DNA from: Candidatus Fimivivens sp.
GTDB lineage: Bacteria; Patescibacteriota; Minisyncoccia; Moranbacterales; UBA1568
DNA: 64,000 bases
Direction: 5' to 3'
NCBI GenBank assembly: GCA_035560715.1
Contig: DATMYW010000034.1
Coordinates: forward strand, 16,439-80,438
The translations under genes and the position numbers were made by a program. The notes below the pieces were generated by a model. That model made no database searches. It saw nothing but the letters and a program-made list of their open reading frames with translations, and was not told the DNA's origin. Shown here piece after piece: positions 4,159-35,206 of this stretch. Within the stretch, counting starts at the first letter, position 1. Every line of letters begins with the position of its first letter.

Positions 4159-4697
4159 ACGGTGGTCGTTCGGACGGAAGAGGGCATGTATTTTCTTCAG
4201 TATACCAGCAAAGCCAGGGTCTTGGAAACGGCATGGGGTCGCCGGGGGATATCCGGAGCGGATAAAAAAAGAGCCGCCGTAAAGAGGAGGAAAAAAGAGG
4301 TGATTCATGATTATCATGAAATTCAGGAGGGTCCTGATCACTTCTCTTCCTACACTTCGCGGCGGCTGCGATACGACGAGGGATGGCGTCTTGGATTACG
4401 GATTTTGTCTCGCTGCTTCTAAGCGAAACTCTCCGATTATCGAGCAACCACCCCTGTACGTCCATCATAGTCCGTATGACCCATCTGTCAAGGGTTGGAA
4501 AAGGACGTATTCAAGCGGAACAAGACGCGCAGGTACGCGGCGGCCGATGCCGCACGAATCCTGCCTGAGACGTCGGAATTTTAATGCCGACCTTAGTGAT
4601 CGCTATGATTGCCTCTCGGACCGAAATGTTCTAATATATGGGGGAAATCGCTGCCGGCGTTCAGTCGGGTTTGGGCGTGTACCAGTTAATCCAGCCT

Positions 4698-5639
4698 ATG
4701 GAAGATCAGAAACATTTTTTGTCGGTCGTCGTGCCGCTCTATAACGAGGAAGGGAACGTGAAGGAGCTTCACGCGCGGATCAAGAAGTCGGTCGAGCGTA
4801 TCGGCGACCCGTACGAGATCCTCTTTGTCGACGATGGATCGACCGACGGAACGCTCGCGGATTGCGAGGGACTTTCACCGCTCACGTTGATACGGTTTCG
4901 CAAGAATTTCGGGCAGACAGCCGCGTTCGACGCCGGCATCAAGCAGGCGAAGGGTGACATCGTAATCACTATGGATGGCGACCTGCAGAACGATCCGGAC
5001 GACATCGCGTCACTTGTCGGAAAGATGGACGAAGGGTATGACGTCGTATCCGGCTGGCGTTTCGAGCGCAAGGATCCGATCATGAAGAAAATCTTCTCGC
5101 GTACCGCGAACCTGTTGCGCGGATTTCTCGTCAAGGACGGCATCCACGACTCCGGCTGCAGTCTCAAGGCGTACCGGAGGGAGTGCTTCGAGGGGGTGGA
5201 AATGTTCGGCGAGATGCACCGGTTCATTCCGGCGATGCTTATGATGGACGGATTCCGCGTAGCCGAAGTCAAGGTGTCGCATCATCCGCGGGTACATGGG
5301 AAGACGAAATACAACTGGAAGCGCGGTATCAAGGGGTTTGTCGACATGCTCGCGTTGTGGTTCTGGCGAAACTACTCATACCGGTCGCTCCACCTGTTCG
5401 GCGGGACCGGACTCGTGTCCGTGGCGTTCGGGTCGCTTATCCTGATGTGGATGTTCATCGAAAAGGTCTTCTATGCGGCGTCACTTTCGGAGAGGATATG
5501 GCCGCTTGTCGGGACGCTTCTCATTCTTGTCGGTGTCCAATTGTTCGTCTTCGGAATACTCGTGGATATTTCGGTGAAGATCTATTATCGACAGCGCAAC
5601 CGGATGAACTACTCGGTCAGGGAGGTTATCAATTCATAG
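4698..5639 (+). CDS. GT2 polyprenyl-phosphate sugar transferase with two C-terminal TM helices (GtrB/ArnC-like)
   Basis: LSVVVPLYNEEGN, then FVDDGSTDGT, then DGDLQNDP, plus C-terminal hydrophobic helices. The start is taken at Met21 of the track ORF (MEDQKHFLSVVVP). Confidence 0.8.
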   Translation: MEDQKHFLSVVVPLYNEEGNVKELHARIKKSVERIGDPYEILFVDDGSTDGTLADCEGLSPLTLIRFRKNFGQTAAFDAGIKQAKGDIVITMDGDLQNDPDDIASLVGKMDEGYDVVSGWRFERKDPIMKKIFSRTANLLRGFLVKDGIHDSGCSLKAYRRECFEGVEMFGEMHRFIPAMLMMDGFRVAEVKVSHHPRVHGKTKYNWKRGIKGFVDMLALWFWRNYSYRSLHLFGGTGLVSVAFGSLILMWMFIEKVFYAASLSERIWPLVGTLLILVGVQLFVFGILVDISVKIYYRQRNRMNYSVREVINS

Positions 5640-12237: not shown

Positions 12238-12338
12238 ATGATCGGAAAGTATCCCCCTTTCTGAAATCTCAGGTCCCTGGTACCATAGAGAGTGAAACGG
12301 CTTCATTATAGCCCGTAATCGCATAGGTGACAAAACGT

Positions 12339-13301
12339 ATGGCCGTAATCGCGAAAGAATTGAGAAAGAAGGTCATTTTTGTGTTAAAAGCCGCGATGGC
12401 GGTCGCTCTGATCGTCCTTTTGGTCATCAAGGTGGACTGGACGAAGATCTGGTCCGAGGTGTCGGAAGCGTCACCGCTGTTGCTATTGGTCGCGACGCTG
12501 CTTTATGTCGCGGGACTGTTCATGTGTATCGAACGCTGGTGGCGCGCCGCCCACTACAAGAAGTTCGCCATGACGTTCTGGGATGCGGCAGAATTCTTTT
12601 TTGCCGGACTGTTCCTGAACAATTTCCTGCCCTCGTTCTTCGGAGGTGACGCGTATCAAAGCTACATCCTCGGGAAATCCGAGCACCGGTATCCCGCCGC
12701 GATTTCGACCGTGATGTTCACGCGCTTCATCGGCCTGTGGGCCACGATATCCCTTTTTTTTACGTTCGGGCTGCTTGGTTGGAGTCGGGTGTTCACGAAA
12801 CCCGTGTTCGAATGGTTCGGCATCGGATTGCTGTTCTTCCTGGTCGCGGACTTGGTCCTCGTCTTCGTGTACGCGCATCCACGGTTCAAGCGGTTCGTCG
12901 AATGGCTTCCCGAGAAGATCAGGTGTTTCTTTTCCGAAATCGGAGGGTATGCGAAGTGGCCGTTCCTGCGGGAGAACTTCATTCTTTCGACGGCATTCGC
13001 GTTCGTCGGTGTCGGCATGTTCAACCTGATGCTGTTCTTCGCGCTCGGTGAACGGGTTCCGATTTTTCCGTACCTGGCTACCGTATTTCTTATCAGTCTC
13101 GTCTCGAGCCTGCCGGTCTCAATCAACAATATCGGACTCAAGGAGTGGGCATACTTCACGTTTTTCCCGCTTATCGGTATCCGTCCCGAAGCGGCGCTCG
13201 CCGTAGCGTTGCTCGGGCGGTTCATACAGATCCTGATCAGTCTTGTCGGGGCACCGTTCTTCTTCAGGGAAAAAAAAGAATACGGAACCGATCGGGCATA
13301 A
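12339..13301 (+). CDS. Integral membrane protein, flippase-like UPF0104 / lysylphosphatidylglycerol-synthase TM-region family
   Basis: About 8 TM helices. This family is commonly found beside GT2 enzymes in glycolipid loci. The start is taken at the ATG for MAVIAKELRKK. Confidence 0.5.
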   Translation: MAVIAKELRKKVIFVLKAAMAVALIVLLVIKVDWTKIWSEVSEASPLLLLVATLLYVAGLFMCIERWWRAAHYKKFAMTFWDAAEFFFAGLFLNNFLPSFFGGDAYQSYILGKSEHRYPAAISTVMFTRFIGLWATISLFFTFGLLGWSRVFTKPVFEWFGIGLLFFLVADLVLVFVYAHPRFKRFVEWLPEKIRCFFSEIGGYAKWPFLRENFILSTAFAFVGVGMFNLMLFFALGERVPIFPYLATVFLISLVSSLPVSINNIGLKEWAYFTFFPLIGIRPEAALAVALLGRFIQILISLVGAPFFFREKKEYGTDRA

Positions 13302-13358: not shown

Positions 13359-15101
13359 TTATCGGTTCAGCCTGTTCCACGTAGGCAGGGCGAGTATGTG
13401 CTTCATCTCCTCGGTCGTTTCCATGGAATCTTCCGATTGTCTCTCCTGGGTCACGAAGAGCGGGTTCGGTTTGAAGAAATGTACCGTCAATGAGCCGAAT
13501 TCACGCTTCCCTAAAGGTATGAAATGGACGTTCGCCCTGGGTGTTTTTCCGGTCTGGAGGACGATGAAATAGTTTCCTTCGCGATACAGCGGCGAATCAT
13601 GAGGTTCCGAGAAGTAGCGTATGCCGAGTCGCGACAGGTGATACCAGAAAGCCGGCTCGAACTCCGCGACTGAGGAAAGGTATACCGGATAGCCGTTTTC
13701 ACTGGCGATCGAGGAGATGTAGACCGCGATACGTTCCTGTTGCGATAGGGTGATGCGTGAGGTATTCGGAAACACGTCTTCCGTTTCAAGCGGAGAGGAC
13801 GATGTCGAGTCGTCTTGGAGTCGATCGAAAACGGAAATGATTCCCGATATATTCGAGCCGATAAGCATGCCCGAAAAAAGAACGATCAGGACGAGACCGG
13901 CGGGTGAGTTTCGGAACGGCCTGTGCGATCGGATGGCGTCGAGAATGAGTCCGAAGAGCAGGAACGGTAGAGGGGAGACGAGCAGGAAAAACCGCGGATA
14001 GATACGATAGGTCCGGGCGAGTGAGAAGTAGTACGAAAAAGAAACGACGAACCACAATGAAAGGATGAGAATGACGTCCTTTTTCTTATCCTTCCGCTCC
14101 CGGAGAAGTCCGATGAGAAGCGTAGCGGCACCTGCCGTGAAAAAGACGATCGCTGACAGGTTCACGAACAGTTCCGAGAGCGTACGATGCCGCATCAAAG
14201 CGTCAAGAGTGACCACTTTTCGAGCATTGATTTCACCGAGTCCCGAAAGGAGGAAAAAATACGACGTTATATGGTGGTGTGCGTCGTCGATAAGTGCGGC
14301 AGTGGAATCGGCGGCGCCTCCTCCGATCGTTGACTTGGCGAACTTATTTACAAAAAATCCGACGTTTTCTCCATGTGTCACGATATCACTCGCAATCATA
14401 GGGGAATAGACGATCGCTACGAGGATGAGTGCCGCGATCCAGGTCCTGAGAGGAAAACGGGGACGTTTGACGAGTAAAAAAATGACGATCACTGCCGGTA
14501 CCGTAAAAAAGGCGTTGAAGTGAATCTGCGTGACGGCAGCGCCCGACAGGGCGGCGATCAGAAACCAGCGGTTCCGATGTCGTTCGCTCTCGTCTACGCA
14601 TCTCAGGATGGCATAGAAGCAACCGAGGACGAGAAACGGCAGGACGTTCGGGCTCCAGGAGAAGCGAGCATACGAGACCGTATACAGTGACGTCGCGAAC
14701 AGAGCGGTGACGGACAGGGAGACCGTCTTCGACAGCACCCTTCTGGAGAAAAAATAAACGAGGGGAATAGTGAGGATTGACGACACGAGGACGACCATGG
14801 CGTGGCCGGTCGGCGTATTGCCGAACACCAGGGCCGAGAGATATTGAGCATAATAGAAAATCGGGCCGAGACGGAGCGCCCGCCCGCCGCCCGCGGTCGG
14901 ACCCAGGAGCGGGAGGTTTCCGGGTCCGTTCGTTACCGCCCCGGAGACGATGTTGAAATCGTATGTCTGGTCGATCTCGAAATGAAGCCAATCATGGAAA
15001 CGATAGGCTCGCAAAGTCACTCCTATGCAGAGAATCATGAACAGCGCCAGGAGTTCCCACTTTCTGGATCGGGTCATCACGCTGATCTCGCGAAGATTCA
15101 T
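13359..15101 (-). CDS. GT-C-like polytopic membrane glycosyltransferase, paralogue 1 of 5
   Basis: Shares the N-terminal blocks LRAYRFHDWLHFEIDQTYD, then LGPIFYYAQY, with four other genes in the window. It is 580 aa with about 12 TM segments. Confidence 0.65.
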   Translation of the reverse strand: MNLREISVMTRSRKWELLALFMILCIGVTLRAYRFHDWLHFEIDQTYDFNIVSGAVTNGPGNLPLLGPTAGGGRALRLGPIFYYAQYLSALVFGNTPTGHAMVVLVSSILTIPLVYFFSRRVLSKTVSLSVTALFATSLYTVSYARFSWSPNVLPFLVLGCFYAILRCVDESERHRNRWFLIAALSGAAVTQIHFNAFFTVPAVIVIFLLVKRPRFPLRTWIAALILVAIVYSPMIASDIVTHGENVGFFVNKFAKSTIGGGAADSTAALIDDAHHHITSYFFLLSGLGEINARKVVTLDALMRHRTLSELFVNLSAIVFFTAGAATLLIGLLRERKDKKKDVILILSLWFVVSFSYYFSLARTYRIYPRFFLLVSPLPFLLFGLILDAIRSHRPFRNSPAGLVLIVLFSGMLIGSNISGIISVFDRLQDDSTSSSPLETEDVFPNTSRITLSQQERIAVYISSIASENGYPVYLSSVAEFEPAFWYHLSRLGIRYFSEPHDSPLYREGNYFIVLQTGKTPRANVHFIPLGKREFGSLTVHFFKPNPLFVTQERQSEDSMETTEEMKHILALPTWNRLNR

Positions 15102-15130
15102 ACGTCATCGATGAAGCGTGTACTGTCCGG

Positions 15131-16960
15131 TCAGCGGAGACTGGAGGCCGGAACTATCCGTACGTAATTGTCGTCCCGATCACCGATGACGATGACCTTT
15201 TCGGAATCGATGTCGCCATACAGCCTCCGAAAATCGATGATGTCGTTGACGGAGCCCGAAAGCTTCAATGATCGGGATTTCCGACCTGCCGAGACGACGA
15301 AATAGTCGAACGTTTTCCCCCGTATGTCCTTGACGGAGAAACCGATATTGCAGGTCCCGACGAACTCAGTGCACACCGCTCCCTTGTCTGACCAAACGAC
15401 GAGATCGTGCGCACCTGGCAGGGAGTTGAGGTACGCGGCCGCCTCATAGCTTCCGTCTCCCATATCCTTCGTGTTAAGGAGATAGCGATCGGGAAGCAGC
15501 GGCGAGGCGTAGGCGAAGAAAAACGGACGTATCCGGATCAACGAAACCGTCAGGACGGTGAATAGCAGCGCGGCGGTAACGAGTCGGACCGTGTGTTTGG
15601 GCCGTTTGACGAGGTGAAGCAGCCGTTCCGCTCCGATGGCCGCTATGACGAACGCGAGGGGATAGAGGATGATCTGATACCGGACGGTCGCGACGACTCC
15701 GTTCGCCGTCGATGCGGCATAGTAGAGCAGGATGAACAGCGCGAGATATATGACCATGTTCTTTTCTCGAATCGGCGATCCTTCTCGTCTGGTCGCTGAC
15801 ATGAGGCCGACGATGAAAAGGATCAGAATCAGTGGGTGCATACCGAAGATAAGACTGTATACGTCGGCGAGTACGGCGCCGGCGACTGCCATGAGCGGAC
15901 CCTCCGAGGCGACCCCGATCCCTTTCGGGGAGGAGAGAATCCCTTCGAAATCGAACGGCCGCATGCCGAGATACGTATCCGCGAATACGAACAGGATCAG
16001 ACTGAGAAATATCGACATGAGAATCGTAGCGAGCGCGCGGCGGAACCTGGAAAAAAAGTCGAACACGGGTACGAGCATCCTATTGGAGAGGAATAAGGTA
16101 TCGATCGCGACGAACAGCAGAAGTCCCGCGAAGGCGGGCCACGTCTTCTCGAACGCCTTGCTACCGAAGGTTCCTTCGAGAAGGACGTCCGGATGTTTCC
16201 AGGTAGCCGGATACAGCGTGTAAAACGTCAGGAGGGACACGGCCGCCAATACGAGGTAGTCCGTGAATGCCTTCTTAATGTACTCGCGAAGCGGCGGTTT
16301 TTCGTCGGAAAAGACGTATTCGAGGAAGGGGAGGGCGAGAAAGAAGACATACAATATGTTGGCGACGTACTTCGTGAGCAGCGAAAGACCGAGAAAGACG
16401 CCTGATGCGATCAGGTACCACGCTTTCGGTTGTTTGCGGTAGGCGAACATCGACAGGAGAGACAGAGGAAGGAAAATCCAGAGGAGCGAGTCGGGATTGA
16501 TAATCATCGCTATGCCGAGAAGAATCGGCGAGAGGCCGATCATGACTGAACTGATGAGCGCGACGGTTTTTCCGGCGATGCGTTTGAGAAAAAAATAGAA
16601 TGCCGGAAGCATAAAAATGCAGAACAGGAATATGGGAAGTCGGAACCAGAAATTGATCCCATCTATGTCCGAAAGGACGGCGTCGGTCTTTATTTCGCCA
16701 CGGACATGCTCGTACACCATCGGATCGTATCTGAGCAGACCGAATCCGGAGAGGAGCGCGACCGTGATGCCCGGCTTGTCATTGATGTCGGTCGAATTCC
16801 ATCGGTGTGCATCGATCGCTGACCAGAATTTTGAAATGCGGCCGTATGTCCAGTACGGCTCGTCGACGGCAGAATAGGTGCCCAGGCGCGTGAGACCGAG
16901 GAATAGGTCGACGCAGATGATGGCGGTCAGAATGACGACGGATCCGTATTTCTTTATCAT
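15131..16960 (-). CDS. GT-C family (ArnT/PMT, GT39/GT83-like) membrane glycosyltransferase
   Basis: 609 aa and polytopic. It has a DE motif in the first extracytoplasmic loop (AVDEPYWTYG), as in ArnT/PMT-type enzymes that use polyprenyl-phosphate sugar donors. Confidence 0.65.
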   Translation of the reverse strand: MIKKYGSVVILTAIICVDLFLGLTRLGTYSAVDEPYWTYGRISKFWSAIDAHRWNSTDINDKPGITVALLSGFGLLRYDPMVYEHVRGEIKTDAVLSDIDGINFWFRLPIFLFCIFMLPAFYFFLKRIAGKTVALISSVMIGLSPILLGIAMIINPDSLLWIFLPLSLLSMFAYRKQPKAWYLIASGVFLGLSLLTKYVANILYVFFLALPFLEYVFSDEKPPLREYIKKAFTDYLVLAAVSLLTFYTLYPATWKHPDVLLEGTFGSKAFEKTWPAFAGLLLFVAIDTLFLSNRMLVPVFDFFSRFRRALATILMSIFLSLILFVFADTYLGMRPFDFEGILSSPKGIGVASEGPLMAVAGAVLADVYSLIFGMHPLILILFIVGLMSATRREGSPIREKNMVIYLALFILLYYAASTANGVVATVRYQIILYPLAFVIAAIGAERLLHLVKRPKHTVRLVTAALLFTVLTVSLIRIRPFFFAYASPLLPDRYLLNTKDMGDGSYEAAAYLNSLPGAHDLVVWSDKGAVCTEFVGTCNIGFSVKDIRGKTFDYFVVSAGRKSRSLKLSGSVNDIIDFRRLYGDIDSEKVIVIGDRDDNYVRIVPASSLR

Positions 16961-17091
16961 AAGTTCCGATGAATTGTGCGAGAAGCTTATGGAAATCAGG
17001 CGGAGGAATTCAGGGCGATGATAGCACGAATGCAGGTCATTCGCAACCGTCCGGGATGCGGAACGATGCCTCGGATAAGGGTCTGAACCGG

Positions 17092-17120
17092 TTTACAGGG
17101 TGTTCGCACCGAGGTATACT
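17092..17120 (+). promoter_or_regulatory. Sigma70-like promoter TTTACA-17nt-TATACT for the five-gene membrane glycosyltransferase operon
   Basis: TTTACA is at 17092-17097 and TATACT at 17115-17120, with an exact 17-nt spacer, 60 nt upstream of the 17182 start. The -10 hexamer is the same as in the trpB promoter. Confidence 0.45.
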
Positions 17121-17181
17121 GTCGTCGTGTCCGACACCGGCCTGGTCACATGTCTTTAGCCAATATGATAGCTCACTCGCC

Positions 17182-18945
17182 ATGAAGAAAAACATCATCG
17201 GCTGGAGCGGATTCGTGCTGCTCCTCATCATCACGGCCTCGATTTTCGTACGTGCGTACCGGTTCGACGACTGGCTTTATTTCAAGATGGACCAGTCCAG
17301 GGACGCATTCATGATAACCAACGCCGTCGAGAACGGTCCGCAGTACCTGCCGCTCCTGGGCGCCCGTGCAGGCGCGGTGAAACTCGATCACGGCTTTCTC
17401 CGTCTTGGACCTATCTTCTATTACTTCCAGTACCTTTCCGGCGTCATTTTCCACTCAACGCAGCCGTACGTGTACGCGTATCCCGACCTTTTCTTTTCGG
17501 TGCTCGCGATACCGATGCTCTACCTTCTGGTCAGGCGGTTTTTTTCGAAGCGAAATTCGCTGTTCATCGTGGCGATGTACGCGTTCTCATTCATCATAAT
17601 CCAGTATTCCCGCTTCGCATGGAATCCGAATTCACTGCAGTTCTTTCAACTCGTCAGTTTTTACGGATTGCTGCGATTCCTGAACGAACCCGTTGAAAAG
17701 CGGAAGAAGTGGTGGCTCGCGATGTGGGCGACCGGAATGACGATCGGCTCGCAGCTGCATTTCTTCGGATTTTTCAGTTTGGTGGGTATCTCGGGACTGG
17801 TCGTCCTGGCGCATTTCCGGATGTGGGAGAGTCGTCAATGGGCCGCCGTTATGAAGCGTGACGTGTTGCGAACGATCTTCCGTCATGTCGGCACCGCGGC
17901 ACTCGTCTTTTTTGTCTTCTACGCACCGGTTTTTATCAGCGACGTCTACAGGGGTGGTGAGAATACGCGCAATTTCTTCGAGGCGATCGGTTCCAAACCC
18001 GCTGACAAGCCGCTTAGCCAGAAATTGATCAAGGATATCACCGAAAACGTGAAGTACTACTGTCTTATCACGACCTCGCAGTGTTATGATGGCGGTGTCA
18101 GGAAGCACATTCCTGCCATAGTGGCGACGGCACTTATAATGCTGTCGGGTGTCATGCTGGTCATCCGTGGCCTTCTGAGTAGGACACTCGATCGATCAAA
18201 GCGAGATTTTCTGTTTCTGCTTGTCGCCTGGGTGACCGTCTTTACGGTCCTGACGATTCCGGTATCGTTTCAGTTGCGGCCGAGGTTCTTTATCGTCGTC
18301 TTCGCGATTCCGTTCATTTCGGTCGCCCTCCTGTTCGAATATCTAGAGGAAAAAGTGAAACCGGGACAGGCGCTCGCGTTCGCGTTTCTGGTGACGGCCG
18401 GAATCATCGCATGGAATACGACTGGCACGTATGCCTGGTTCAGGGAGCAGGCGGAGTCCCAGAATCACGCATTCGACGTGCAGCGGACGCTTATTCTCAA
18501 GGTCAAGGACGGCGTTACGCTCGGTGAACTGCAGGGAGTCACCGATTGGATGTATGAGAGGCATCGTTCCGGAGCGGCGCTGTATTACTATGTGAAACCG
18601 GAGCATGTCAGGCCTGTCGATTATCTTCTGTATCTCAAGCATGATTCCGAACTCCGTTACGCCACCATGTCGGAGAAGAGCGAACCCGAAGCACAGTTTT
18701 TCGCGATTACCCCGGCTGACAGCGGCATCGATGCCGCACGCAAGAAATTCGGAGATTCCCTGACGGTCGTCGATTCGGCCCAGTTCGGACAGTTGGTCGT
18801 TTCCGAACTCGATTATCCGGGCCGTTCGGCGACCGGAGATCGCCGATTCAACCGGACCGATGGGAAGTCGGACCGCGTGTTCTGGAAAGACGTATTCGGA
18901 GTGACCGACACTGACAGCGCCATACGGATAGATGCCTCGGAGTGA
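17182..18945 (+). CDS. GT-C-like polytopic membrane glycosyltransferase, paralogue 2 of 5
   Basis: VRAYRFDDWLYFKMDQSRD, then LGPIFYYFQY, then AYPDLFFSVLAIPMLY, then YSRFAWNPNSL. The start is taken at MKKNIIG, Met72 of the track ORF. Confidence 0.7.
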   Translation: MKKNIIGWSGFVLLLIITASIFVRAYRFDDWLYFKMDQSRDAFMITNAVENGPQYLPLLGARAGAVKLDHGFLRLGPIFYYFQYLSGVIFHSTQPYVYAYPDLFFSVLAIPMLYLLVRRFFSKRNSLFIVAMYAFSFIIIQYSRFAWNPNSLQFFQLVSFYGLLRFLNEPVEKRKKWWLAMWATGMTIGSQLHFFGFFSLVGISGLVVLAHFRMWESRQWAAVMKRDVLRTIFRHVGTAALVFFVFYAPVFISDVYRGGENTRNFFEAIGSKPADKPLSQKLIKDITENVKYYCLITTSQCYDGGVRKHIPAIVATALIMLSGVMLVIRGLLSRTLDRSKRDFLFLLVAWVTVFTVLTIPVSFQLRPRFFIVVFAIPFISVALLFEYLEEKVKPGQALAFAFLVTAGIIAWNTTGTYAWFREQAESQNHAFDVQRTLILKVKDGVTLGELQGVTDWMYERHRSGAALYYYVKPEHVRPVDYLLYLKHDSELRYATMSEKSEPEAQFFAITPADSGIDAARKKFGDSLTVVDSAQFGQLVVSELDYPGRSATGDRRFNRTDGKSDRVFWKDVFGVTDTDSAIRIDASE

Positions 18946-21152
18946 TCGTAATCGGACGAAAATTCATCTTATTCAATCACATGCGGGAGCTGATACGGAA
19001 AAGCGGCAGTTACCTAAGAAGGCATCACATACTCGCCGCTTTCGTGGCGTATGCCGCCTTGGCGCTTGTCTTTACGTACCCGTTGGTCTTCAACCTGACA
19101 TCGGTGATTCCGAAGGGAGGGCGGGACTCATTCCTGGTGATCGCGACTATAGAGCGGCTGTCGGATATCGTGAGGGAGCAGGGGTGGCGAAACGGTTTCA
19201 TCACCCTTGCGAAGACATACCAGTTGAACAGTTATCTTCCTTATGTCGTCATCGGACAGTTCACGACCGCATACGGAGCGAATAACATCCTGTTTCTCGG
19301 GAGTTTCCTATTTTCTGCGATCGGGGCGTACATGCTTGCGTATCACCTTACGAAAAGCGGTCCCGGATCGTTTTTGGCAGGTCTCATTTTCGCGTTCTCC
19401 CCGTTTCATACCTATCAGTCGACGGCCATCCATGTCGGATCGATGCATCAGGAGCTGTTGCCATTTTTCGCGTTGTACCTGATGCGCTTTTTCGAGGGTT
19501 TCCGATTCAGGCACTTTGCCATCGTTTCCGTACTGGCCGCGCTTATCGCGCTGACCGAACATCAGTTGCTCGCGTTCACGGTGATCTTCACGGCTGGATT
19601 TCTCGCGTATGCCGTCGTCACAAACAGGCGTGTCATCAGGGACAAGAGATTCTGGGCGTATTTTTCGGTTTCCGGCGCGCTGCTCTTCGTCTTTGCTCTC
19701 GTCCTGTTCAAACCGCTGCTTTCCGTGACATTTTCCGGAAACAATTATCTCGATCCCGGCATCAAGAGTGTACGGAATCTGTCAGCGTACGCGGTCGATA
19801 CGGTCCTCCCTCCGCAGTTTCACGGCATCTGGCCGGGGCTCAACGAATTCCTGCAGGAAAATGTCTTCCATACGTCGCACAAAGGGGATTCGTACTATGT
19901 CGGTCCGACGGTCTTCCTACTGATCGGATATGTCCTGTTCCGTCTGTTCGGGTCGCGTCGTTTAGCTTCTGATGATGGCGGAATGCTCCGTTTTTGGATT
20001 ATCGTGACTCTCGGTTTTCTCGTATTGTCGTTCGGTCCGACGATGAGCCTGTATCGCTGGACGATCCCTCTTCCGTATTTCGTTATTTATAAACTCGTCC
20101 CGTTTTACTCGAATATCAGGACCGTCGGACGTTTTCTGGTATTCGCGATCCTGGGTGCCTCCGTTCTTTCCGCGTATGCCGTGGCCGATATCCGCCGGCG
20201 AAATGTATCGAAGAACGTCGCCCGTGTCGCGATGGTGTGCGCATGCGCACTGGTTCTTGTCGAATATTGGATCGCCCCGATCCGTACGACCGTTTTTACG
20301 CATTCACCGTTCTATGACCGAATCGCGGAAGACGGAGGGACATACAGACTGCTTGAGATTCCGGGCAGCACGAACGATGTCTTTTTCAACTACGAATGGA
20401 TCACCAGGAACGTCCATCACAAGGAATTGCTCAACGGAATGCCGATGGCACGTGAGATCGACGGTCAGTTCGACTTCCAAAAGAATACGCCAGTGGTTCG
20501 CGAACTGCTCTACTCGATCCCGAAGGGGAGCGACCCGCTGGGAAAGAGCCAGAACGATATTCTCCGGGGTTTCGAATGGGTGCAGGCTCCGGATATTCTC
20601 AATTATGCGGGCGTCGGATTCGTGACGGTAAGCAAGGAGTACACGTCCGCGGAAGTGCGGGACACCGTCGAGCGATTCATGAGAGCATACGTTCCTTCCG
20701 CGGAGCGGATTGAGGACGAATTCCTGATCGCATATGCGATACCGAGACTGGATCCGATGGGAATCTATGCCGTGTTCCGGATCGATGGCGGGGGATTTTC
20801 CGATGTCTTTCCCGCTACCGACGGTTCCATGCGACGGGAAATCGGCGACGGCGCACGACTGAACGTCGTAAACATGGAGTCGGTACCCAAGCGGGTAAAG
20901 ATCGTCGTCAGCGCCCAATCGGTCAGTGATATCGGCTTCGACGTCACGACTGATGGGATTGCGGGTACAAGACGGAATCAGGTAAGTCCTGATGCGGGGG
21001 AGTATCTTTTTGAGACGACGCTCCTTCCCGGAAACAATGAGCTCGTCTTCCATGTGACGGATCGGAACGGGAATCCCGTGGCCGTCCGAGAGAAAAAGAA
21101 GGATCGTTTCAGGGCACTTATCGTCAGTGCCGTTTCGATCGTGACGGAATAA
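18942..21152 (+). CDS. Large polytopic membrane protein of 736 aa, probably a GT-C-fold transferase from a different family than the paralogue set
   Basis: About 13 TM segments followed by a roughly 250-aa soluble C-terminal domain. It overlaps the upstream stop by 4 nt (GTG start). Confidence 0.6.
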   Translation: MIVIGRKFILFNHMRELIRKSGSYLRRHHILAAFVAYAALALVFTYPLVFNLTSVIPKGGRDSFLVIATIERLSDIVREQGWRNGFITLAKTYQLNSYLPYVVIGQFTTAYGANNILFLGSFLFSAIGAYMLAYHLTKSGPGSFLAGLIFAFSPFHTYQSTAIHVGSMHQELLPFFALYLMRFFEGFRFRHFAIVSVLAALIALTEHQLLAFTVIFTAGFLAYAVVTNRRVIRDKRFWAYFSVSGALLFVFALVLFKPLLSVTFSGNNYLDPGIKSVRNLSAYAVDTVLPPQFHGIWPGLNEFLQENVFHTSHKGDSYYVGPTVFLLIGYVLFRLFGSRRLASDDGGMLRFWIIVTLGFLVLSFGPTMSLYRWTIPLPYFVIYKLVPFYSNIRTVGRFLVFAILGASVLSAYAVADIRRRNVSKNVARVAMVCACALVLVEYWIAPIRTTVFTHSPFYDRIAEDGGTYRLLEIPGSTNDVFFNYEWITRNVHHKELLNGMPMAREIDGQFDFQKNTPVVRELLYSIPKGSDPLGKSQNDILRGFEWVQAPDILNYAGVGFVTVSKEYTSAEVRDTVERFMRAYVPSAERIEDEFLIAYAIPRLDPMGIYAVFRIDGGGFSDVFPATDGSMRREIGDGARLNVVNMESVPKRVKIVVSAQSVSDIGFDVTTDGIAGTRRNQVSPDAGEYLFETTLLPGNNELVFHVTDRNGNPVAVREKKKDRFRALIVSAVSIVTE

Positions 21153-21161
21153 CAGAAACGT

Positions 21162-22775
21162 ATGCGTTTACGGTTCCCGCCGATGAAGTTGAGGTCCGGG
21201 GAAGGGATGGCGCTTGCCGCGACTTTGGCGGCAGGCGTTTTCCTACGAGCATACCGCTTTCATGACTGGTTGCACTTCGGTTCCGACCAGTCGCGGGATG
21301 CCGTTATCGCGTCGGGCGCCGCGTCAGGGAATATCCCGTGGCCGTTGCTCGGTCCGGAGGCGGCACATACGGGTTTTCATCTCGGACCCGCCTACTATTA
21401 CTTCCAGATCGTATCAGCGAAACTGTTCGGTCGCGCTCCGGAGGTGTTCGCATATCCCGACCTGCTGTTTTCGGTTCTTTCGATCCCGCTCCTCTATGTG
21501 CTGCTCGCAAGGTTTGTACGACGTCCCATCGCGCTGTCACTCACGTTCGTATACGCCGTTTCCTCCTACTCTGTTTACTACTCGAGATTCGCGTGGAATA
21601 CGAACCCGATCCCATTCTTTTCGATGCTGTTCATCCTGTCTCTGTCGGAAATCCTGCATTTCGGCGGTCGATCGCGATGGATGTGGGTCATTTTGCTCGG
21701 AATATCCGTCGGGATCGGTGTGCAGCTGCACACGATGCTGCTGACGCTTTTCCCGATCGTCACGATCATGACCGCCGCCGTTGGCCTGCGATACGATTTT
21801 CGGGCCTGGAACCGCTGGCTTGCCGTACTGGCGATCGCGTTGTGTCTCAATGGGCCGCAGATCGTTGACGGCTTCGCTACGGGCTTCGCGAATACGCGTC
21901 AGTTCCTCTCCGTTTCTTCCGATAAGTCCGGCAGCGGGGCCTCTCGGCTGGTCCGGAATCTGGAAAACGCGGTGCTGTGTCATGCGGAGGCGAATGCGGT
22001 CATGCTTTCGGCGGTCGGAGAGAACGACAAATGCTCTTACATATCGCTGTGGAAGCATCCGTCGGTGTCCATGGCCAGGCTCGGCCGGAGACAGTTCGTT
22101 ACAAGGAGTCTGGGGTACGTTCTCAGTATGGCGTTTTCCGTCGCCGGGTACTGGTCGCTCGCGAGGCAATTCCGAAATGAGTCCGATCGACGGAAAAAGA
22201 TTCTGCTCGGTATCGTGCTCCTGTACGTCGTTCTCACTTTCGTGTTGTCGGTACCCGTTCTCTTCGATGCCCCGCTTCGGTACTTCCTGCATACGATATT
22301 CGTCCCGTTCCTGTTCGTCGCTCTGATGATCGAGCGGTATGGAACATCCGCTCGGGGACATCTCATTTCGGCCACCCTCGGTATCGCCGCGGTACTCGTG
22401 ACGACGAACCTATATGCACTCGGCTCGCAGGCGTCCCATCTCGCCGGCATGACCAGGGGAGACGATGGATTCGCGGTCCTCGATCAGGTTGAGTCTCTGG
22501 TACAGTTCGCCGTCAGCTCCTCGTCCGGCAATGAAGGGTACCTTCTCGGACGTCATACCTATTTCTCCGCGTACGCATCCCCACTTGCCTACGTGGCTTC
22601 TCTTCGCGGGTACGTCCTTCGCCGGGCGGAATCGATCGATGATGTCCCCACCGGTGCGGACGTATTCTATCTCTGGCGCCCCACTCCTCCGGATACGGAA
22701 AAAAGGTTCGACGGACGCGCGGTGGAGCGATCCGTCACGATCGGGAATCTCGAGTTTTACATGGTGAGAAAATAG
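21162..22775 (+). CDS. GT-C-like polytopic membrane glycosyltransferase, paralogue 3 of 5
   Basis: LRAYRFHDWLHFGSDQSRD, then LGPAYYYFQ, then AYPDLLFSVLSIPLLY, then YSRFAWNTNPIPF. Confidence 0.7.
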   Translation: MRLRFPPMKLRSGEGMALAATLAAGVFLRAYRFHDWLHFGSDQSRDAVIASGAASGNIPWPLLGPEAAHTGFHLGPAYYYFQIVSAKLFGRAPEVFAYPDLLFSVLSIPLLYVLLARFVRRPIALSLTFVYAVSSYSVYYSRFAWNTNPIPFFSMLFILSLSEILHFGGRSRWMWVILLGISVGIGVQLHTMLLTLFPIVTIMTAAVGLRYDFRAWNRWLAVLAIALCLNGPQIVDGFATGFANTRQFLSVSSDKSGSGASRLVRNLENAVLCHAEANAVMLSAVGENDKCSYISLWKHPSVSMARLGRRQFVTRSLGYVLSMAFSVAGYWSLARQFRNESDRRKKILLGIVLLYVVLTFVLSVPVLFDAPLRYFLHTIFVPFLFVALMIERYGTSARGHLISATLGIAAVLVTTNLYALGSQASHLAGMTRGDDGFAVLDQVESLVQFAVSSSSGNEGYLLGRHTYFSAYASPLAYVASLRGYVLRRAESIDDVPTGADVFYLWRPTPPDTEKRFDGRAVERSVTIGNLEFYMVRK

Positions 22776-22778
22776 CCT

Positions 22779-24362
22779 ATGCACGCAATTCTCCGACGAA
22801 TCGGAATCAAGAAAGCGGTGATCATTTCACTTGCGATCATCACGGTGCTCGGCCTGTCGATTCGGACGTATCGCTTTCACGATTGGCTCAGGTTCAATGC
22901 TGACCAATCCCGTGACGCCGGTATCGTGAGTGATGTCCTCGACGGGAAGATCGCGCTTCCGCTGTACGGTCCGAAGGCCGGAGGGACGGAGTTCCGACTC
23001 GGTCCGGCTTTCTATCACTTTGAGATCTTTTCCGCTTGGTTGTTCGGCAACCGGCCGGACGTGATGGCGTATCCCGACCTGTTTTTCTCGATCCTGACGA
23101 TTCCGCTCCTCTATATCTACCTTCGCAGGCGGTTCGGGATGCGGATATCGTTGTCGCTTACGTTTTTGTATGCGGTTTCCTTCTATACGGTCAAATATTC
23201 GCGATTCGCATGGAATCCGAACTCGCTTCCGTTCTGGTCGCTGTCGTTTTTGCTCGGATTTCAGAAACTGTCCGAGGGAGCGCCGTCCGGCGGGAAACGA
23301 TGGTGGTTCTGGCCAGCAGTGACGGGTGTCGCGCTCGGCGTGGTGGTCCAGCTTCATACCCTGGCACTGGTCGCGTTTCCCACGATGGCCGTCCTGTCGT
23401 TCGCCTACCTGGCGCTTATTCGGAAACGGGATATACGGAAGCCGCTCGCCGTGGTATTCCTGATCGCTGTCGCCTGGAATGCCACTCAGGCATACGGGGA
23501 ATTCCGGACCGGCGGTGAGAATACGCGCGCGTTCATGAGCGGAGTCGGTACGAAGGAGAAGAAAGGGAGCGGCATGGCGCGCAACGCCATTAAGGAGGCG
23601 GTCTGCTATACGGATGCGAACGTCTACGTGCTTTCTTCCCGAGACCGTTCCGATACGTGCGAGATCAAGGGTATCACGAAGGGATCCGGTGCGGTCGTAT
23701 CCTTGCTTGGGCTTATTTTCATGATCGGCGGAATCGCACACTCGATACGTTCCGTGCTGAGAGAGCGGGACGAGCGGCGCGCATTCTTCACGCTCCAATT
23801 CCTGTCCGTCATGACGCTGTTCGCGCTCACGCTGCTTCCGCTTGCCAACGAGATATCGATGCGCTTCTTCCTCGTCATGACGTTCATGCCGTTCGTCTTC
23901 CTGGGCATGTGGATCGAATTCCTCGCGGAGCGCTTGCCGAAGCCTGCGGCGATGATCATATCCGGCATCGTCATCGTGTCGCTCGTCATGATGAACGCCG
24001 TCTCGATCGGACGTTCGTTCGTCGAATATGCCGGATACGCGACCCTGTCGGGAGGTGGGATGGATAACGTGACACTGAAGGAAGTGGAACAAGCGTCGGC
24101 CTTTATCGTCGCGAATGCGGGGGATTCGGATTCCGCGTATCTCGTCGGCGATGCGAAATATCTTTTCAAGGCACAGAAGTCCATCGACTATCTGACCAGG
24201 CGGGTCGGCATCCGCGTCTTACAGCCCGGGAAAAAAACGACCGAAGGCGTTCCGGTCTTTCTGGTCGACAACAGCGACAAGGCCGATGAGATCCTGGCCG
24301 CCGGCCACGTCGAGGCGTACGGCGTACTCGGTCGATTCACGATATTCAAACGCGAACTATGA
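22779..24362 (+). CDS. GT-C-like polytopic membrane glycosyltransferase, paralogue 4 of 5
   Basis: IRTYRFHDWLRFNADQSRD, then LGPAFYHFE, then AYPDLFFSILTIPLLY, then YSRFAWNPNSLPF. Confidence 0.7.
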   Translation: MHAILRRIGIKKAVIISLAIITVLGLSIRTYRFHDWLRFNADQSRDAGIVSDVLDGKIALPLYGPKAGGTEFRLGPAFYHFEIFSAWLFGNRPDVMAYPDLFFSILTIPLLYIYLRRRFGMRISLSLTFLYAVSFYTVKYSRFAWNPNSLPFWSLSFLLGFQKLSEGAPSGGKRWWFWPAVTGVALGVVVQLHTLALVAFPTMAVLSFAYLALIRKRDIRKPLAVVFLIAVAWNATQAYGEFRTGGENTRAFMSGVGTKEKKGSGMARNAIKEAVCYTDANVYVLSSRDRSDTCEIKGITKGSGAVVSLLGLIFMIGGIAHSIRSVLRERDERRAFFTLQFLSVMTLFALTLLPLANEISMRFFLVMTFMPFVFLGMWIEFLAERLPKPAAMIISGIVIVSLVMMNAVSIGRSFVEYAGYATLSGGGMDNVTLKEVEQASAFIVANAGDSDSAYLVGDAKYLFKAQKSIDYLTRRVGIRVLQPGKKTTEGVPVFLVDNSDKADEILAAGHVEAYGVLGRFTIFKREL

Positions 24363-25999
24363 TCCCTATGAACGATATTCTTCGTCGATTGCTGAGCCGG
24401 ACCAGGACCATACCGACATGGGTGTGGATACTGACCGCTATCCTGGCCGTCGGCATCGTGCTGCGTACGTACCACTTCCGGGAGTGGATGACATTCAATC
24501 CGGATCAGGCGCGCGACGCGCTTCTGGTTCAGGATGTCCTGGCCGGCCGCGCGCCGCTGCCCCTGTTGGGTCCGCAGGCCGGTAATACGGCCTTCAAACT
24601 CGGTCCGATCTTCTATCATTTCGAGATCGTTTCGGCAAAACTGTTCGGTACGGACGCGGTCAGCATGGCCTATCCCGACCTGATGTTCTCCATCCTGACC
24701 ATGCCGCTCCTTTTTGCGTTCTTGCTGAATTTTTTCGGCAAACGTCTCGCGCTCGTCCTTACCGCGCTGTATTCGGTCTCCTTTTTCATCGTCACGTATT
24801 CCCGCTTCGCCTTCAATCCGAATTCCATTCCGTTCTTCACACTGCTCTTCCTGACCGGCCTGCTTGCGATCATGAATGCCGGGAAGAGCGAGAAACTTTC
24901 TTCCGCGTCGATGGCAGGTATCGCCATGGGAGTCGGTATCCAGCTTCATGCCCTGCTTCTGGTCGCGATGCCGATCGTCGCCGCGACCGTGTTCATTTTC
25001 CAGTTTGCCCGCAGTCGGTTCGTTTGGAAGAGCGCCCTGACGATGCTAGCCTGTTCCCTCCTGATGAACATTCCCCAGATTGTCGACGGATCGCAGGCCG
25101 GCGGATCCAATTTTCGCGCGTTCGTCGGCGGCGCGGGTGCGGAGACGCGATCATCCGATTCGAAACTGGCGCGGAACACCGTGAACGACATCAGTTGTCA
25201 TATCCAGGGAGTAGCTTATATCGCGACCGGCATCGGAAACGGTGATAAATGCGACCTGATGAACCTGCGATCGCGGATCGCGTCAAAAGGGATACGGACC
25301 AATGTTGAGGATATCGTGATCGCCGCGATCGGGGTATTGCTGTATGTCGGGGGATCGGCCTTGTTAGTGATCCGCGCCCGACGGGAAACCGATGAGCAAA
25401 AGCGGAATTTCCTCCTATTGTGCGGTTCCTACTCACTTGTCGTGTTCCTGATATTCATTCCCGTTTCCGCAAGCGTCTCGATACGTTATTTTATCGTGAT
25501 CGCATTTGTTCCGTTTCTGTTTATCGGCCTCTGGATTCGGGTCATAGCGGATCGATTCCAAGAAAAGGTCGCGAAGTCCGTATGCCTGTTGGCGATGGTC
25601 GGATTTGCGACTTCGAACGTATCGTCGATCTCGGACGCCGTGGCGAAACTCTCCGACGGAAGCGCGAGTACGGTCGATGTCGCCGTATATGGCGAGGTCG
25701 AACGCATGGGATCGTATATCATGGACGGGAACGTGTCCGATCGGGAAATCTATCTGTCAGGTGGAAGCAAGTACCTGAAGCGGTTCTATATGCCGCTCAA
25801 GTATTTCGCCGCACGAGGCGGTATCGTCCTGACGAAGGTCGACAGCGAGCGTCCGGTCGATCCGAACGTTCCGATGTATTCCATCACGAAACGCCGACCC
25901 GGGACAGTATCGTCTGGTGTCGATGTGACGCTCCGACGAGATTTCGGAAATGTCAGTATCGTCAGGGTTGAAACTTCTGGTGCTGAATCGGACGAATAA
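24359..25999 (+). CDS. GT-C-like polytopic membrane glycosyltransferase, paralogue 5 of 5
   Basis: LRTYHFREWMTFNPDQARD, then LGPIFYHFE, then AYPDLMFSILTMPLLF, then YSRFAFNPNSIPF. It overlaps the upstream gene by 4 nt. Confidence 0.7.
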   Translation: MIPMNDILRRLLSRTRTIPTWVWILTAILAVGIVLRTYHFREWMTFNPDQARDALLVQDVLAGRAPLPLLGPQAGNTAFKLGPIFYHFEIVSAKLFGTDAVSMAYPDLMFSILTMPLLFAFLLNFFGKRLALVLTALYSVSFFIVTYSRFAFNPNSIPFFTLLFLTGLLAIMNAGKSEKLSSASMAGIAMGVGIQLHALLLVAMPIVAATVFIFQFARSRFVWKSALTMLACSLLMNIPQIVDGSQAGGSNFRAFVGGAGAETRSSDSKLARNTVNDISCHIQGVAYIATGIGNGDKCDLMNLRSRIASKGIRTNVEDIVIAAIGVLLYVGGSALLVIRARRETDEQKRNFLLLCGSYSLVVFLIFIPVSASVSIRYFIVIAFVPFLFIGLWIRVIADRFQEKVAKSVCLLAMVGFATSNVSSISDAVAKLSDGSASTVDVAVYGEVERMGSYIMDGNVSDREIYLSGGSKYLKRFYMPLKYFAARGGIVLTKVDSERPVDPNVPMYSITKRRPGTVSSGVDVTLRRDFGNVSIVRVETSGAESDE

Positions 26000-26745: not shown

Positions 26746-28218
26746 TTATGAACGAGCGATACCCGGAAGAAGGCGGCGGATAGGAACCCAATCGGTCGGT
26801 TCCAGGACCCTGGCGGCGAACAGGATGACGAAGTGGAGCAGAAACAGGCAGGCTCCCGAGAAGATGAAGGAATACGTGTCGGCCGGGAGGAAACGGGAGA
26901 GAAAGAGGAGCACTGCCGACGATCCGAACGAGACGATCCAGAGGCGGAGCGGTATGTGAACCCTGAAGTGACTGTCGGTGAAGACGAGAATGCCGACCAT
27001 AAGGATGAACGTGACGATCGTCGTTGCGATTGCCGATCCGACGATTCCGTAGATGGGGATGAGAAGTGCATTGAGGGCGGCAGATGCGACAAGTCCGACA
27101 CCTGAGACATACATGGGAATCTTCACGAGTCCGGCGCCACTGATAGCGAAAGCGAGGACATAAAAAACAGTTAGAAACCCGTTTCCGACCGCAAACACGC
27201 TCAATGATGCGGTGGCTTCGGCGTATGCACTTCCGTAAAAAAGGCTAATGAACGGTCCGGCATAGACCGAAAGCAGGGTCACTGCAGGAAAGAGGATCAG
27301 AGCCAGAAGTCGAAGCGCCTTGTTCACGAGTTTCGAGGTTTCAGCTTGGTCGCGATTTGCCGACGTCTTGGAAATCGCCGGCAACAGGATGATGGTAAGC
27401 GCGTAGAAGAGGTAGTATGGGATATTCCCCACGGTAATGACCGCGTTATACAGGCCGGTGAGGTGGTCGTCATGCAGTAGTGCTTTTACCAGAAAGAGAT
27501 CCAGAGAAGTTATCATCTGGTAAAACAGCATGAAAAGCGTCAGTGGCCAAGCGTAATCGAGCAGTTTTTTTGCCGGGAAGTCCGGTGAGTCCGTGTTTTT
27601 TACCTCGGGGAAGTATTTTTTCGTAATGAGGGCGTCGCAGACCAGCGCGACTCCGAACACGAGCAGGGGGGAAACGATGTAACCGGCAACGGCTCCTCGG
27701 ACTCCGAACAACCATGCCAAGAGGATGATGAAGGTCATCCTCGTGACCGAACGAGTGGTCTTGAGCGCGGCTTGGAGTCTGAAGAAGTGAAGTCCGGTGA
27801 AATATGAAAAATAGAAAGATGCGGCGGCGAATGACGGGATGATAAGCGATGAGAGTTGAAAGAGGGGGGTAAGAGTCGCATCGCCGAGAGCTGCCGCAAT
27901 CAGCGGGGAGAGCAGGAAAAACGCGAGTGTGACGGTCGCCATGATCGTCGTTTGGAGAAATATCGTCTTTCTCTTGATACCGAGTATCCGATCGGGGTGC
28001 GTCTCGAAAATCTCGCTCATGTACTTCGACATGGCGGTTGGCACTCCGTTTCCGATGAGTATGATTACCGTCGTCGTCAGGTTCACAATAAGACCGTACC
28101 GTCCGTAATCGGAGGGGCCGAGCAATCTCCCGACTACGGAATGGATGACGTATCCGGAGGCGTTGAAAATGATTTCCGAAACGGTCAGCCAAACGAGGGC
28201 GCGTGAAAAACTTTTCAT
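26746..28218 (-). CDS. Polysaccharide/O-antigen flippase, Wzx-like, MOP/PST family
   Basis: 490 aa, about 14 TM segments, and N-terminal residues matching PST-family transporters. Confidence 0.75.
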   Translation of the reverse strand: MKSFSRALVWLTVSEIIFNASGYVIHSVVGRLLGPSDYGRYGLIVNLTTTVIILIGNGVPTAMSKYMSEIFETHPDRILGIKRKTIFLQTTIMATVTLAFFLLSPLIAAALGDATLTPLFQLSSLIIPSFAAASFYFSYFTGLHFFRLQAALKTTRSVTRMTFIILLAWLFGVRGAVAGYIVSPLLVFGVALVCDALITKKYFPEVKNTDSPDFPAKKLLDYAWPLTLFMLFYQMITSLDLFLVKALLHDDHLTGLYNAVITVGNIPYYLFYALTIILLPAISKTSANRDQAETSKLVNKALRLLALILFPAVTLLSVYAGPFISLFYGSAYAEATASLSVFAVGNGFLTVFYVLAFAISGAGLVKIPMYVSGVGLVASAALNALLIPIYGIVGSAIATTIVTFILMVGILVFTDSHFRVHIPLRLWIVSFGSSAVLLFLSRFLPADTYSFIFSGACLFLLHFVILFAARVLEPTDWVPIRRLLPGIARS

Positions 28219-34780: not shown

Positions 34781-35206
34781 TTATCGTTCCCGGTAAATCT
34801 CCCTCTTCGTGCCGTCATCTGCCGATACGGAGACGCTCGTGCGGCCCGAATCCGGTACGACATCCGGAGTCACGAGCCTCGTATCTCCCTTGGCGACCGA
34901 CAGATCACCGGTCGAAAGCGTCGATCCTCCGCGCGTTACGGTATATGTGAAGCGGGTCGCTTTGGAATGATTCGTGACCAGGAAAGACGACGAGTCGGCA
35001 TTGCGTGTCTCGAAGGAGAGTGTCCACCAGTCTTTCCCGCGATCCGGATCGAAGGCGCGTTCTATCCCGAAGAACAATATGCCGACGGCGATCGAAAACA
35101 TGACGATGGTCGCACAAGCCGGCCCCCACTCGCTTTCCGTGAGCCGGGCAAGGGATACGAGCTTCCTTTCGCTCGTGTCGGTGTCGCGATTACTGTTTCC
35201 GTTCAT
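34781..35206 (-). CDS. Small membrane-anchored protein with one TM segment; hypothetical
   Basis: It runs in series on the minus strand with flanking genes (17-nt overlap upstream). It has one hydrophobic helix and a Ser/Thr-rich exposed tail. Confidence 0.4.
   Translation of the reverse strand: MNGNSNRDTDTSERKLVSLARLTESEWGPACATIVMFSIAVGILFFGIERAFDPDRGKDWWTLSFETRNADSSSFLVTNHSKATRFTYTVTRGGSTLSTGDLSVAKGDTRLVTPDVVPDSGRTSVSVSADDGTKREIYRER

Follow-up and report, generated by a model that had tools for sequence, protein, structure and literature searches.

Why should one locus carry five diverged copies of a single large membrane protein, side by side with other membrane proteins of similar size? 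The 64,000-nucleotide stretch of contig DATMYW010000034.1 analysed here (the window) raises this question, and the best explanation of our data is that its divergent cluster, with G and A read leftward and B, X, C, D and E rightward, encodes seven integral-membrane glycosyltransferases of the GT-C fold in a genome of the Moranbacteria, a group of the Candidate Phyla Radiation (CPR, or Patescibacteria). A to E and their relatives share a loop-1 motif of the DQxRD type and are referred to as the F family, which is best explained as a lineage-restricted, ArnT/PMT_2-like subfamily of GT-C. The cluster of seven spans 12.6 kb, with 221 bp between the divergent genes G and B in the map of open reading frames (ORFs); counting Y, a further large membrane protein encoded in the window, the large membrane sugar-transferases clustered here number seven or eight. 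The features of the cluster are:

13359..15101, minus strand: A, 580 aa (572 aa in the public call), F-family GT-C with DQTYD; second gene of the leftward G-A pair
15131..16960, minus strand: G, 609 aa, canonical DE-motif GT-C of the PMT_2 type
17092..17120, plus strand: sigma-70-like promoter candidate TTTACA-17-TATACT, 62 nt upstream of the start of B
17182..18945, plus strand: B, 587 aa (identical length in the public call), with DQSRD; first gene of the rightward operon
18942..21152, plus strand: X, 736 aa from GTG 18942 or 723 aa from ATG 18981, remote GT-C
21162..22775, plus strand: C, 537 aa (530 aa in the public call), F-family GT-C with DQSRD
22779..24362, plus strand: D, 527 aa, F-family GT-C with DQSRD; the structure-modelled member
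24359..25999, plus strand: E, 546 aa, F-family GT-C with DQARD

Paralogy and fold of the F family

ORFs A to E were recovered at the coordinates given in an initial annotation of this DNA, and pairwise blastp relates them to one another over nearly their full length, far beyond chance (E 1e-40 to 1e-89; for A against B-E, 1e-40 to 1e-54). The paralogy proposed in that annotation is therefore real, but the level of identity is 26-37% and not 35-45%. C, D and E are mutually closest at 34-37% (C to D and E, 34-36%), and A and B share 26-31% with the others. The four collinear blocks described earlier align across all five paralogues in MAFFT; read literally, the block patterns all match in B, C and D, whereas E fails the first (DQARD where S or T was specified at the third position) and A matches the first only. 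D-Q-x-x-D is retained in all of A-E. No blast-level similarity to A-E was seen in G, X or Y.

The gathering threshold of Pfam PMT_2 (PF13231, 26.1 bits) is passed by A (37.8 bits), B (29.2), C (29.2), D (29.9), E (34.3) and G (40.8), and B also passes Pfam PMT at 37.7 bits; X and Y score below the PMT_2 threshold. NCBIfam gave only weak matches to A-E, from the Agl23 and ArnT models. The NCBI annotation already names D 'glycosyltransferase family 39 protein', and proteins of this kind are automatically annotated thus or as 'ArnT-like'. Sequence searches of the PDB with F profiles returned a marginal Pmt2 match (E 0.008) or nothing relevant, and those with X and Y profiles returned no matches, so that a comparison of folds was needed.

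An AlphaFold model of D from a 58-sequence alignment (pLDDT 92.7, pTM 0.92) was matched by Foldseek, at probability 1.0, to a series of GT-C enzymes in the PDB, with ArnT at the top, followed by AglB, STT3, PglB, ALG12, AftA and Pmt1/2/4, and transporters appeared only at probabilities of at most 0.41 and TM-scores of at most 0.17. The initial annotation had allowed that structure might place the family outside GT-C; since Foldseek puts the D model among GT-C enzymes, we regard the F family as GT-C. The modelled D protein is polytopic, as expected of a GT-C (about 11-13 transmembrane helices), and superposes on solved GT-C enzymes. The roughly 12 transmembrane segments proposed earlier agree with the AlphaFold helices of D but not with a crude hydropathy count of 7-9, which underestimates the helices and was not relied upon.

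The loop-1 motif and its relation to ArnT

Relatives were sought by sequence pattern in one genome per species, which gave 172 of them in 75 loci, and residue conservation was counted over 180 F-family members from the window and these 75 other loci. R29, D42 and D46 are each present in 179 of the 180, Q43 in 169 (with glutamate at that position in only four), and R45 in 162, while G64, G75 and H193 are found in every member, and N148, Q191, R142, N248, R362 and N406 in at least 93%. D42 and D46 fall in the segment that follows the first long hydrophobic helix (residues 12-30) and precedes the second (98-115). When the F profile was compared with E. coli ArnT (MG1655) by relaxed hhalign, D42-Q-S-R-D-A47 was set against D31-E-T-R-Y-A36; the overall probability was 52%, and the posterior was highest at exactly this loop-1 stretch, the only one where it was high. 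This supports the earlier placement of DQxRD in the first loop after the first transmembrane helix, opposite the DETRYA of ArnT. Judging the orientation from the positively charged N-terminus, the conserved acidic residue would lie in the first extracytoplasmic loop, which is a mark of GT-C enzymes. When the F and G profiles were compared by local hhalign (94.8% probability), only the core from the second to the fifth transmembrane helix was aligned, and DQ could not be set against DE.

ArnT (CAZy GT83), the undecaprenyl-phosphate-L-Ara4N:lipid A transferase, resembles the F family in its GT-C fold, its length of about 530-590 aa and its small C-terminal extracytoplasmic alpha/beta domain; the loop-1 signature D-[EQ]-x-R-x-A lines up residue for residue, and here too an ArnC-like GT2 and a UDP-glucose dehydrogenase (Ugd) are encoded nearby. 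The RYA and YFEKP motifs of ArnT, both located in its first periplasmic loop, are functionally required (PMC5377068). In contrast to ArnT, the F family has glutamine for glutamate, aspartate for tyrosine and F-R-L-G-P for YFEKP, and it shares only about 11% identity with it; the best score against the ArnT equivalog NF009784 is 19.4 bits, for E, far short of the cut-off of 567 bits. The window also differs in having no ArnA, ArnB or ArnD and in its tandem expansion of the family in a CPR host. As the aspartate and arginine of the signature are kept but the other residues are replaced, the F family is ArnT-like in architecture and not an ArnT, and D-Q-x-R-D-A in place of D-E-x-R-Y-A provides a testable sequence signature. 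At least 90% of the F family keeps two cysteines, C276 and C294 in the numbering of D; they belong to a loop of the B-E type and are absent from A. Their pattern suggests a disulfide in an extracytoplasmic loop that sets the A-type apart from the other paralogues.

The G, X and Y proteins

The initial annotation had read G as an ArnT/PMT-like GT-C with a DE loop motif, and its PMT_2 score and invariant D33-E34 bear this out: D33, E34, W37 and R41 are unchanged in 71 of 71 G-family members. Pfam gave no match to the MIR domain in G or in any of A-E. The two marks of a protein O-mannosyltransferase (GT39), a loop-1 DE and a MIR domain, are thus both missing from the F family, which has DQ, whereas G keeps the DE only. 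At 527-587 aa, the F-family proteins are also shorter than the PMTs, which have about 700-760 aa, even though the PMT_2 model recognizes all five in the window and the PMT model recognizes B.

X had been described as an unrelated membrane protein within the operon, a description that our results overturn. A profile of the X family aligns with the F profile at 94% probability (hhalign, E 1e-7) across the GT-C core, and individual X-family members give weak matches to PMT_2, GT87, YfhO, AftD and STT3; D62, the acidic residue that would lie in the first extracytoplasmic loop of X, is present in at least 90% of the X family. With the AlphaFold model of X (pLDDT 88.9), Foldseek found AftD (E 1.2e-8) and then the STT3 subunit of yeast and human oligosaccharyltransferase, DPY19, PglB, AftA and ArnT, and it matched a C-terminal beta-sandwich (about residues 600-735) to CBM35, CBM6 and CBM29. 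Against GT-C_AftD (PF11847), X scores 16 bits (E 0.0031), below the gathering threshold of 26 bits, and its likeness to AftD is one of the predicted fold only. Because of the hhalign link to the F family, the AftD/STT3-like modelled fold and the CBM-like sandwich, we consider X to be a GT-C with a probable glycan-binding module. In the database, homologues of X are all 'hypothetical protein' or unnamed, a few of them with DUF6311.

The remaining large membrane protein of this group lies apart from the cluster:

35190..37175, minus strand: Y, 661 aa, polytopic membrane protein of the DUF1616/DUF6541 type

Members of the Y family match Pfam DUF1616 and DUF6541. A nine-sequence Y profile gave no clear result against F, G or X; a 50-sequence profile linked Y to X only, at 93% probability (hhalign, E 3.4e-7, 252 columns), with 3.9% against F and 28% against G, neither of which is a match. 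On this profile evidence Y is probably a remote GT-C. The initial annotation had listed it among the transferases; its tie to GT-C is an indirect one.

Conservation and age of the expansion

Almost all of the 75 loci are labelled Moranbacteria or, more broadly, Parcubacteria or Patescibacteria, and the close homologues of D, X and Y are all labelled Moranbacteria/Moraniibacteriota or broader Patescibacteria. The best-matching locus, L063 (Moraniibacteriota), also shares the Wzx, Wzy_C and RtcB proteins at 595-1030 bits. The protein identical to D in NCBI carries the label 'Candidatus Fimivivens sp.' (Oscillospiraceae, Clostridia). Given the labels of the homologues and the synteny with L063, the public Clostridia label looks wrong, and we conclude that the window comes from a Moranbacterium. 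A profile search of 1.84 billion representative proteins returned 608 clusters at E <= 1e-30, from which we conclude that the F family is small; the annotated homologues found are almost all from Moranbacteria.

Profile searches show that arrays of F genes are the rule across the 75 loci, with up to six or seven in tandem (L057, L063, L047 and L034). Genes of the G family adjoin these arrays, and those of the X family are found either within an array or following it. The order found in the window (G on the minus strand, then F, X, F, F and F on the plus strand) recurs in L066, and L007 has its mirror image. The presence of such arrays in related genomes had been put forward as a check on the initial annotation, and similar arrays, several with the same gene order, do occur across the Moranbacteria.

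That annotation had also held the expansion to be old, and we agree. In a neighbour-joining tree each window paralogue falls into a clade of its own together with sequences from between 12 and 47 other Moranbacteria loci (A 35, B 47, C 18, D 19 and E 12, the clade of A holding 40 sequences from its 35 loci); A pairs with B, and C with E, with D joining the latter two. The best cross-genome identities (A 44%, B 64% in L066, C 43%, D 54%, E 40%) exceed those among the window's own paralogues. As each paralogue has its own orthologue clade and is closer to proteins of other genomes than to its neighbours, the expansion is, on these sequence comparisons, old and maintained, the C, D and E types being the more fluid.

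Operon structure and promoter

The initial annotation described the rightward operon as joined by 4-nt overlaps behind a promoter, and this holds only in part. The ATGA shared by D and E is unambiguous, but B and X overlap only if X starts at GTG 18942 (with the public start, ATG 18981, there is a gap of 35 nt), and gaps of 9 and 3 nt part X from C and C from D. The promoter sequence TTTACA-17-TATACT is present, matching the consensus at 10 of 12 positions, but it is weak evidence by itself, because the whole 13.8-kb region is not enriched in promoter-like sites (12 observed against 8.4 +/- 3.2 in shuffled sequences).

A plus-strand ORF at 26190-26657, 190 nt downstream of E, encodes a soluble protein of 155 aa with no family match, whose sole homologue is a weak one (30% identity) in L063. 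It has its own promoter-like site (26100-26127), and the strongest terminator-like hairpin of the region lies 3' of it at 26666-26692. Considering the 190-nt gap with its promoter-like site and the lack of a family match, this ORF is probably not a member of the operon.

Envelope-glycan genes around the cluster

The surrounding genes that bear on the function of the array are:

3379-4341: PpgS-like GT2, a further donor-synthase candidate
4638..5639 (true start may be near 4698), plus strand: ArnC/GtrB/PgfS-type GT2, candidate polyprenyl-phosphate sugar synthase
12327..13301, plus strand: LPG_synthase_TM/TIGR00374 flippase-like membrane protein, convergent with A; candidate flippase for lipid-linked sugar
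26746..28218, minus strand: flippase of the Wzx/MurJ superfamily, convergent with the operon; alternative flippase candidate
28962-30401 and 44739-46397, plus strand: Wzy_C (O-antigen ligase/polymerase-like) membrane proteins
38906-39976: AglJ/PpgS-like GT2, beside a UDP-ManNAc-dehydrogenase-like enzyme
47521-48795: LCP ligase
59737-60474: TagA/WecG homologue

The GT2 at 4638-5639, which is followed by a TuaD-like Ugd and then by a GT4, matches the NCBIfam models ArnC (E 3.4e-50, 171 bits against a cut-off of 529) and PgfS (E 4.1e-46, 158 bits against a cut-off of 500) over its full length, and 23 of the 75 loci have a homologue at most 10 kb from F genes. All three GT2s resemble polyprenyl-phosphate sugar synthases (ArnC/PgfS, PpgS and AglJ), in line with the initial annotation, and all score below the equivalog cut-offs. 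The flippase-like protein at 12327-13301 is recognized by Pfam (E 1.1e-29) and by TIGR00374 (61 bits against a cut-off of 43.2) and is present in 19 of the 75 loci; the Wzx-type protein at 26746-28218 (Polysacc_synt, E 5.7e-26) is present in 27. The ArnC-like GT2, Ugd, GT4, flippase-like protein and Wzx are each found no more than 10 kb from F genes in 19-27 of the 75 loci, counts that have to be read with the truncation of many of these loci in mind.

Beyond these, the wider window holds five GT4s, further GT2s and the two Wzy_C proteins, LCP ligase and TagA/WecG homologue listed above. The last four point to a polymer that is assembled on a lipid carrier before its attachment to the wall, and by its gene content the window is an envelope-glycan region.

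Function of the array and competing explanations

The reading that we favor, and think probable, is that the GT-C array transfers lipid-linked monosaccharides to a wall glycopolymer, with a different linkage or position for each paralogue. The donor, the flippase, the acceptor and the division of labor among the paralogues we infer as follows. Membrane-anchored GT2s would place single sugars on polyprenyl phosphate in the cytoplasm, the main candidate being the ArnC/GtrB-like GT2 at 4638-5639 beside the UDP-glucose dehydrogenase, with the two PpgS/AglJ-like GT2s as further candidates. A flippase, either the TIGR00374 protein at 12327-13301 or the Wzx-type protein at 26746-28218, would turn the lipid-linked sugar outward, and each GT-C would then pass the sugar to its acceptor at the outer face of the membrane, the invariant loop-1 aspartate being catalytic or donor-binding. 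As acceptor we consider most probable a wall-linked glycopolymer produced through the neighbouring genes (Wzx-type flippase, Wzy_C, GT4s, TagA and LCP), on which the paralogues may install different linkages or act at different positions, much like the mycobacterial Aft, Emb and Mpt enzymes or the lactococcal Csd pairs. The CBM-like domain modelled in X likewise suggests a glycan acceptor. Glycosylation of the surface may be combinatorial, as had been suggested earlier.

A scheme of this kind, with a GT-A undecaprenyl-phosphate-sugar synthase, a flippase and a GT-C, is established for Gram-positive wall polymers (PMC8035078), and the parts list of the window is, by analogy, best read as that of such multi-component transmembrane glycosylation systems. 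The CsbB/GtrB-type systems (with GT-Cs such as YfhO, GtlB, GacL and CsdB/D/F) would have their counterparts here in the candidate donor-synthase GT2s, the candidate flippases and the GT-Cs, and the set lies among genes for a wall glycopolymer that include an LCP ligase and TagA. They differ in having one GT-C per system against seven or eight per locus here, and in the GT-Cs themselves, which in the window are of the PMT_2/ArnT and not the YfhO type; nor was a GtrA-type flippase detected here. A number of paralogues acting on one envelope glycan would be reminiscent of the mycobacterial arabinan and mannan GT-Cs (AftA-D, EmbA-C, PimE and Mpt, and the PpgS/Rv3779 galactosamine system). X is nearest to AftD in its modelled fold and has a CBM-like domain as AftD and Emb do, and two of the GT2s match the PpgS model; on the other hand, X is not an AftD member at the sequence level, the window proteins are much smaller, and no genes of the decaprenyl-phosphoarabinose pathway were seen in the window.

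Several points weigh against the wall-glycopolymer reading. The change of glutamate to glutamine at the DE position and of the RYA tyrosine to aspartate, together with the loss of the YFEKP lysine, means that ArnT chemistry cannot simply be transferred to the F family. The scores of the GT2s are so far below the NCBIfam equivalog cut-offs that the models do not give the donor sugar, a search among the small ORFs of the window found no GtrA-type flippase, and many X homologues, of about 600 aa, are without the CBM-like domain. Finally, the sequence offers no feature by which a glycopolymer acceptor could be told from a protein or lipid one.

Among the competing explanations, protein O-glycosylation and lipoglycan assembly are the two to be taken seriously. 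The parts list also fits, by the same kind of analogy, protein O-glycosylation by GtrB and a GT-C, as in streptococci, where these proteins O-glucosylate Ser/Thr-rich regions (PMC12041528). The F-family enzymes would then be protein O-glycosyltransferases like the eukaryotic and actinobacterial PMTs or streptococcal PgtC2/PgfM1, moving sugars from polyprenyl phosphate to Ser/Thr-rich secreted or membrane proteins (pili, S-layer or repeat-rich proteins), with substrates that differ from paralogue to paralogue. PMT_2 and PMT are indeed the best Pfam families of A-E, the model matched by the GT2 at 4638-5639, PgfS, is that of a donor synthase in protein glycosylation, and the left edge of the window encodes a secreted protein with repeats. 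Nevertheless, the F family has neither the MIR domain nor the DE motif that mark true PMTs, polysaccharide assembly genes dominate the genomic context and X carries a CBM-like module, so that we see protein O-glycosylation as possible, if on balance unlikely. The same loop-1 motif that departs from the PMTs comes nearest to the ArnT signature, and with ArnT as the top Foldseek match and an arrangement of ArnC-like GT2 and Ugd like that of the arn operon, the array might modify or build a membrane glycolipid or lipoglycan, the paralogues extending the glycan stepwise, as ArnT acts on lipid A and PimE, MptA and MptB on lipomannan. Seven or eight GT-Cs per locus would recall the extracytoplasmic lipoglycan lines of mycobacteria. 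This is quite improbable in view of the ArnT equivalog score, the changes in the RYA and YFEKP residues that ArnT requires, and the lack of ArnA, ArnB and ArnD homologues in the window. CPR bacteria are generally regarded as being without lipopolysaccharide, which also counts against a glycolipid.

It is very improbable indeed that some or all of the paralogues are not glycosyltransferases but transporters, flippase-associated factors or dead scaffold subunits of a heteromeric complex. The NCBIfam model 'flippase activity-associated protein Agl23' does give weak matches (18-32 bits against a cut-off of 126), and heteromeric GT-C assemblies exist, Pmt1-Pmt2 and EmbA-EmbB being among the fold matches; however, all five copies retain every invariant polar residue of the F family, and on the low Foldseek scores of transporters we reject the transporter reading.

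Significance

Our literature search on glycosyltransferases of Moranbacteria, CPR, Patescibacteria and Parcubacteria found no description of this expansion, of the DQxRD signature or of a GT-C assignment for X or Y. What the window adds is a lineage-specific branch of a well-known enzyme class, accompanied by accessory families and packed into a conserved array of unusual density, and not a new type of mechanism. It further gives a GT-C assignment to the X family, which is otherwise 'hypothetical protein' or unnamed in the database entries listed, and a probable GT-C link to the Y family (DUF1616/DUF6541).

CPR bacteria, which are uncultivated, possess minimal genomes, and attachment to other cells is thought to be their way of life; their surface chemistry is central to them yet almost unknown. 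The array points to an elaborate sugar decoration of this surface. The density of the cluster, the phylum-wide arrangement and the retention of each paralogue as its own orthologue group argue that these organisms invest heavily, and under selection, in extracytoplasmic glycosylation. A bolder proposal, which we regard as rather unlikely, is that Moranbacteria with genomes of about 1 Mb build or heavily remodel a complex outer-surface glycan by a phylum-conserved line of at least seven GT-Cs of the DQxRD, G, X and Y families. If this were true, the line would be a CPR counterpart of the mycobacterial arabinogalactan and lipoarabinomannan machinery, and the variable copies of the C, D and E types would diversify the surface glycan for host attachment or phage evasion.

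Other features of the window

Scanned over its full length, the window gave neither an Rfam match nor a tRNA. An ORF that runs off the left end (1-1010, minus strand) encodes a secreted protein whose signal peptide is MRIRLFGVIVFMATVSTFLLSGKPVFA and in which a degenerate unit of about 51 aa (153 nt), with the motif VPVYRFxNxxTGDHFYT...EGxAFYA, occurs at least six times in tandem; it is possibly a surface protein and conceivably a substrate for glycosylation. The plus-strand ORF at 1211-2509 encodes a polytopic membrane protein of 432 aa with no Pfam or NCBIfam match and no homologue in the 75 related loci, which could be another envelope-glycan enzyme, for example a polymerase or an acyltransferase. 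The methionyl-tRNA formyltransferase ORF at 53327-54508 (minus strand) has about 80 extra N-terminal residues before Formyl_trans_N and is probably an over-long ORF call.

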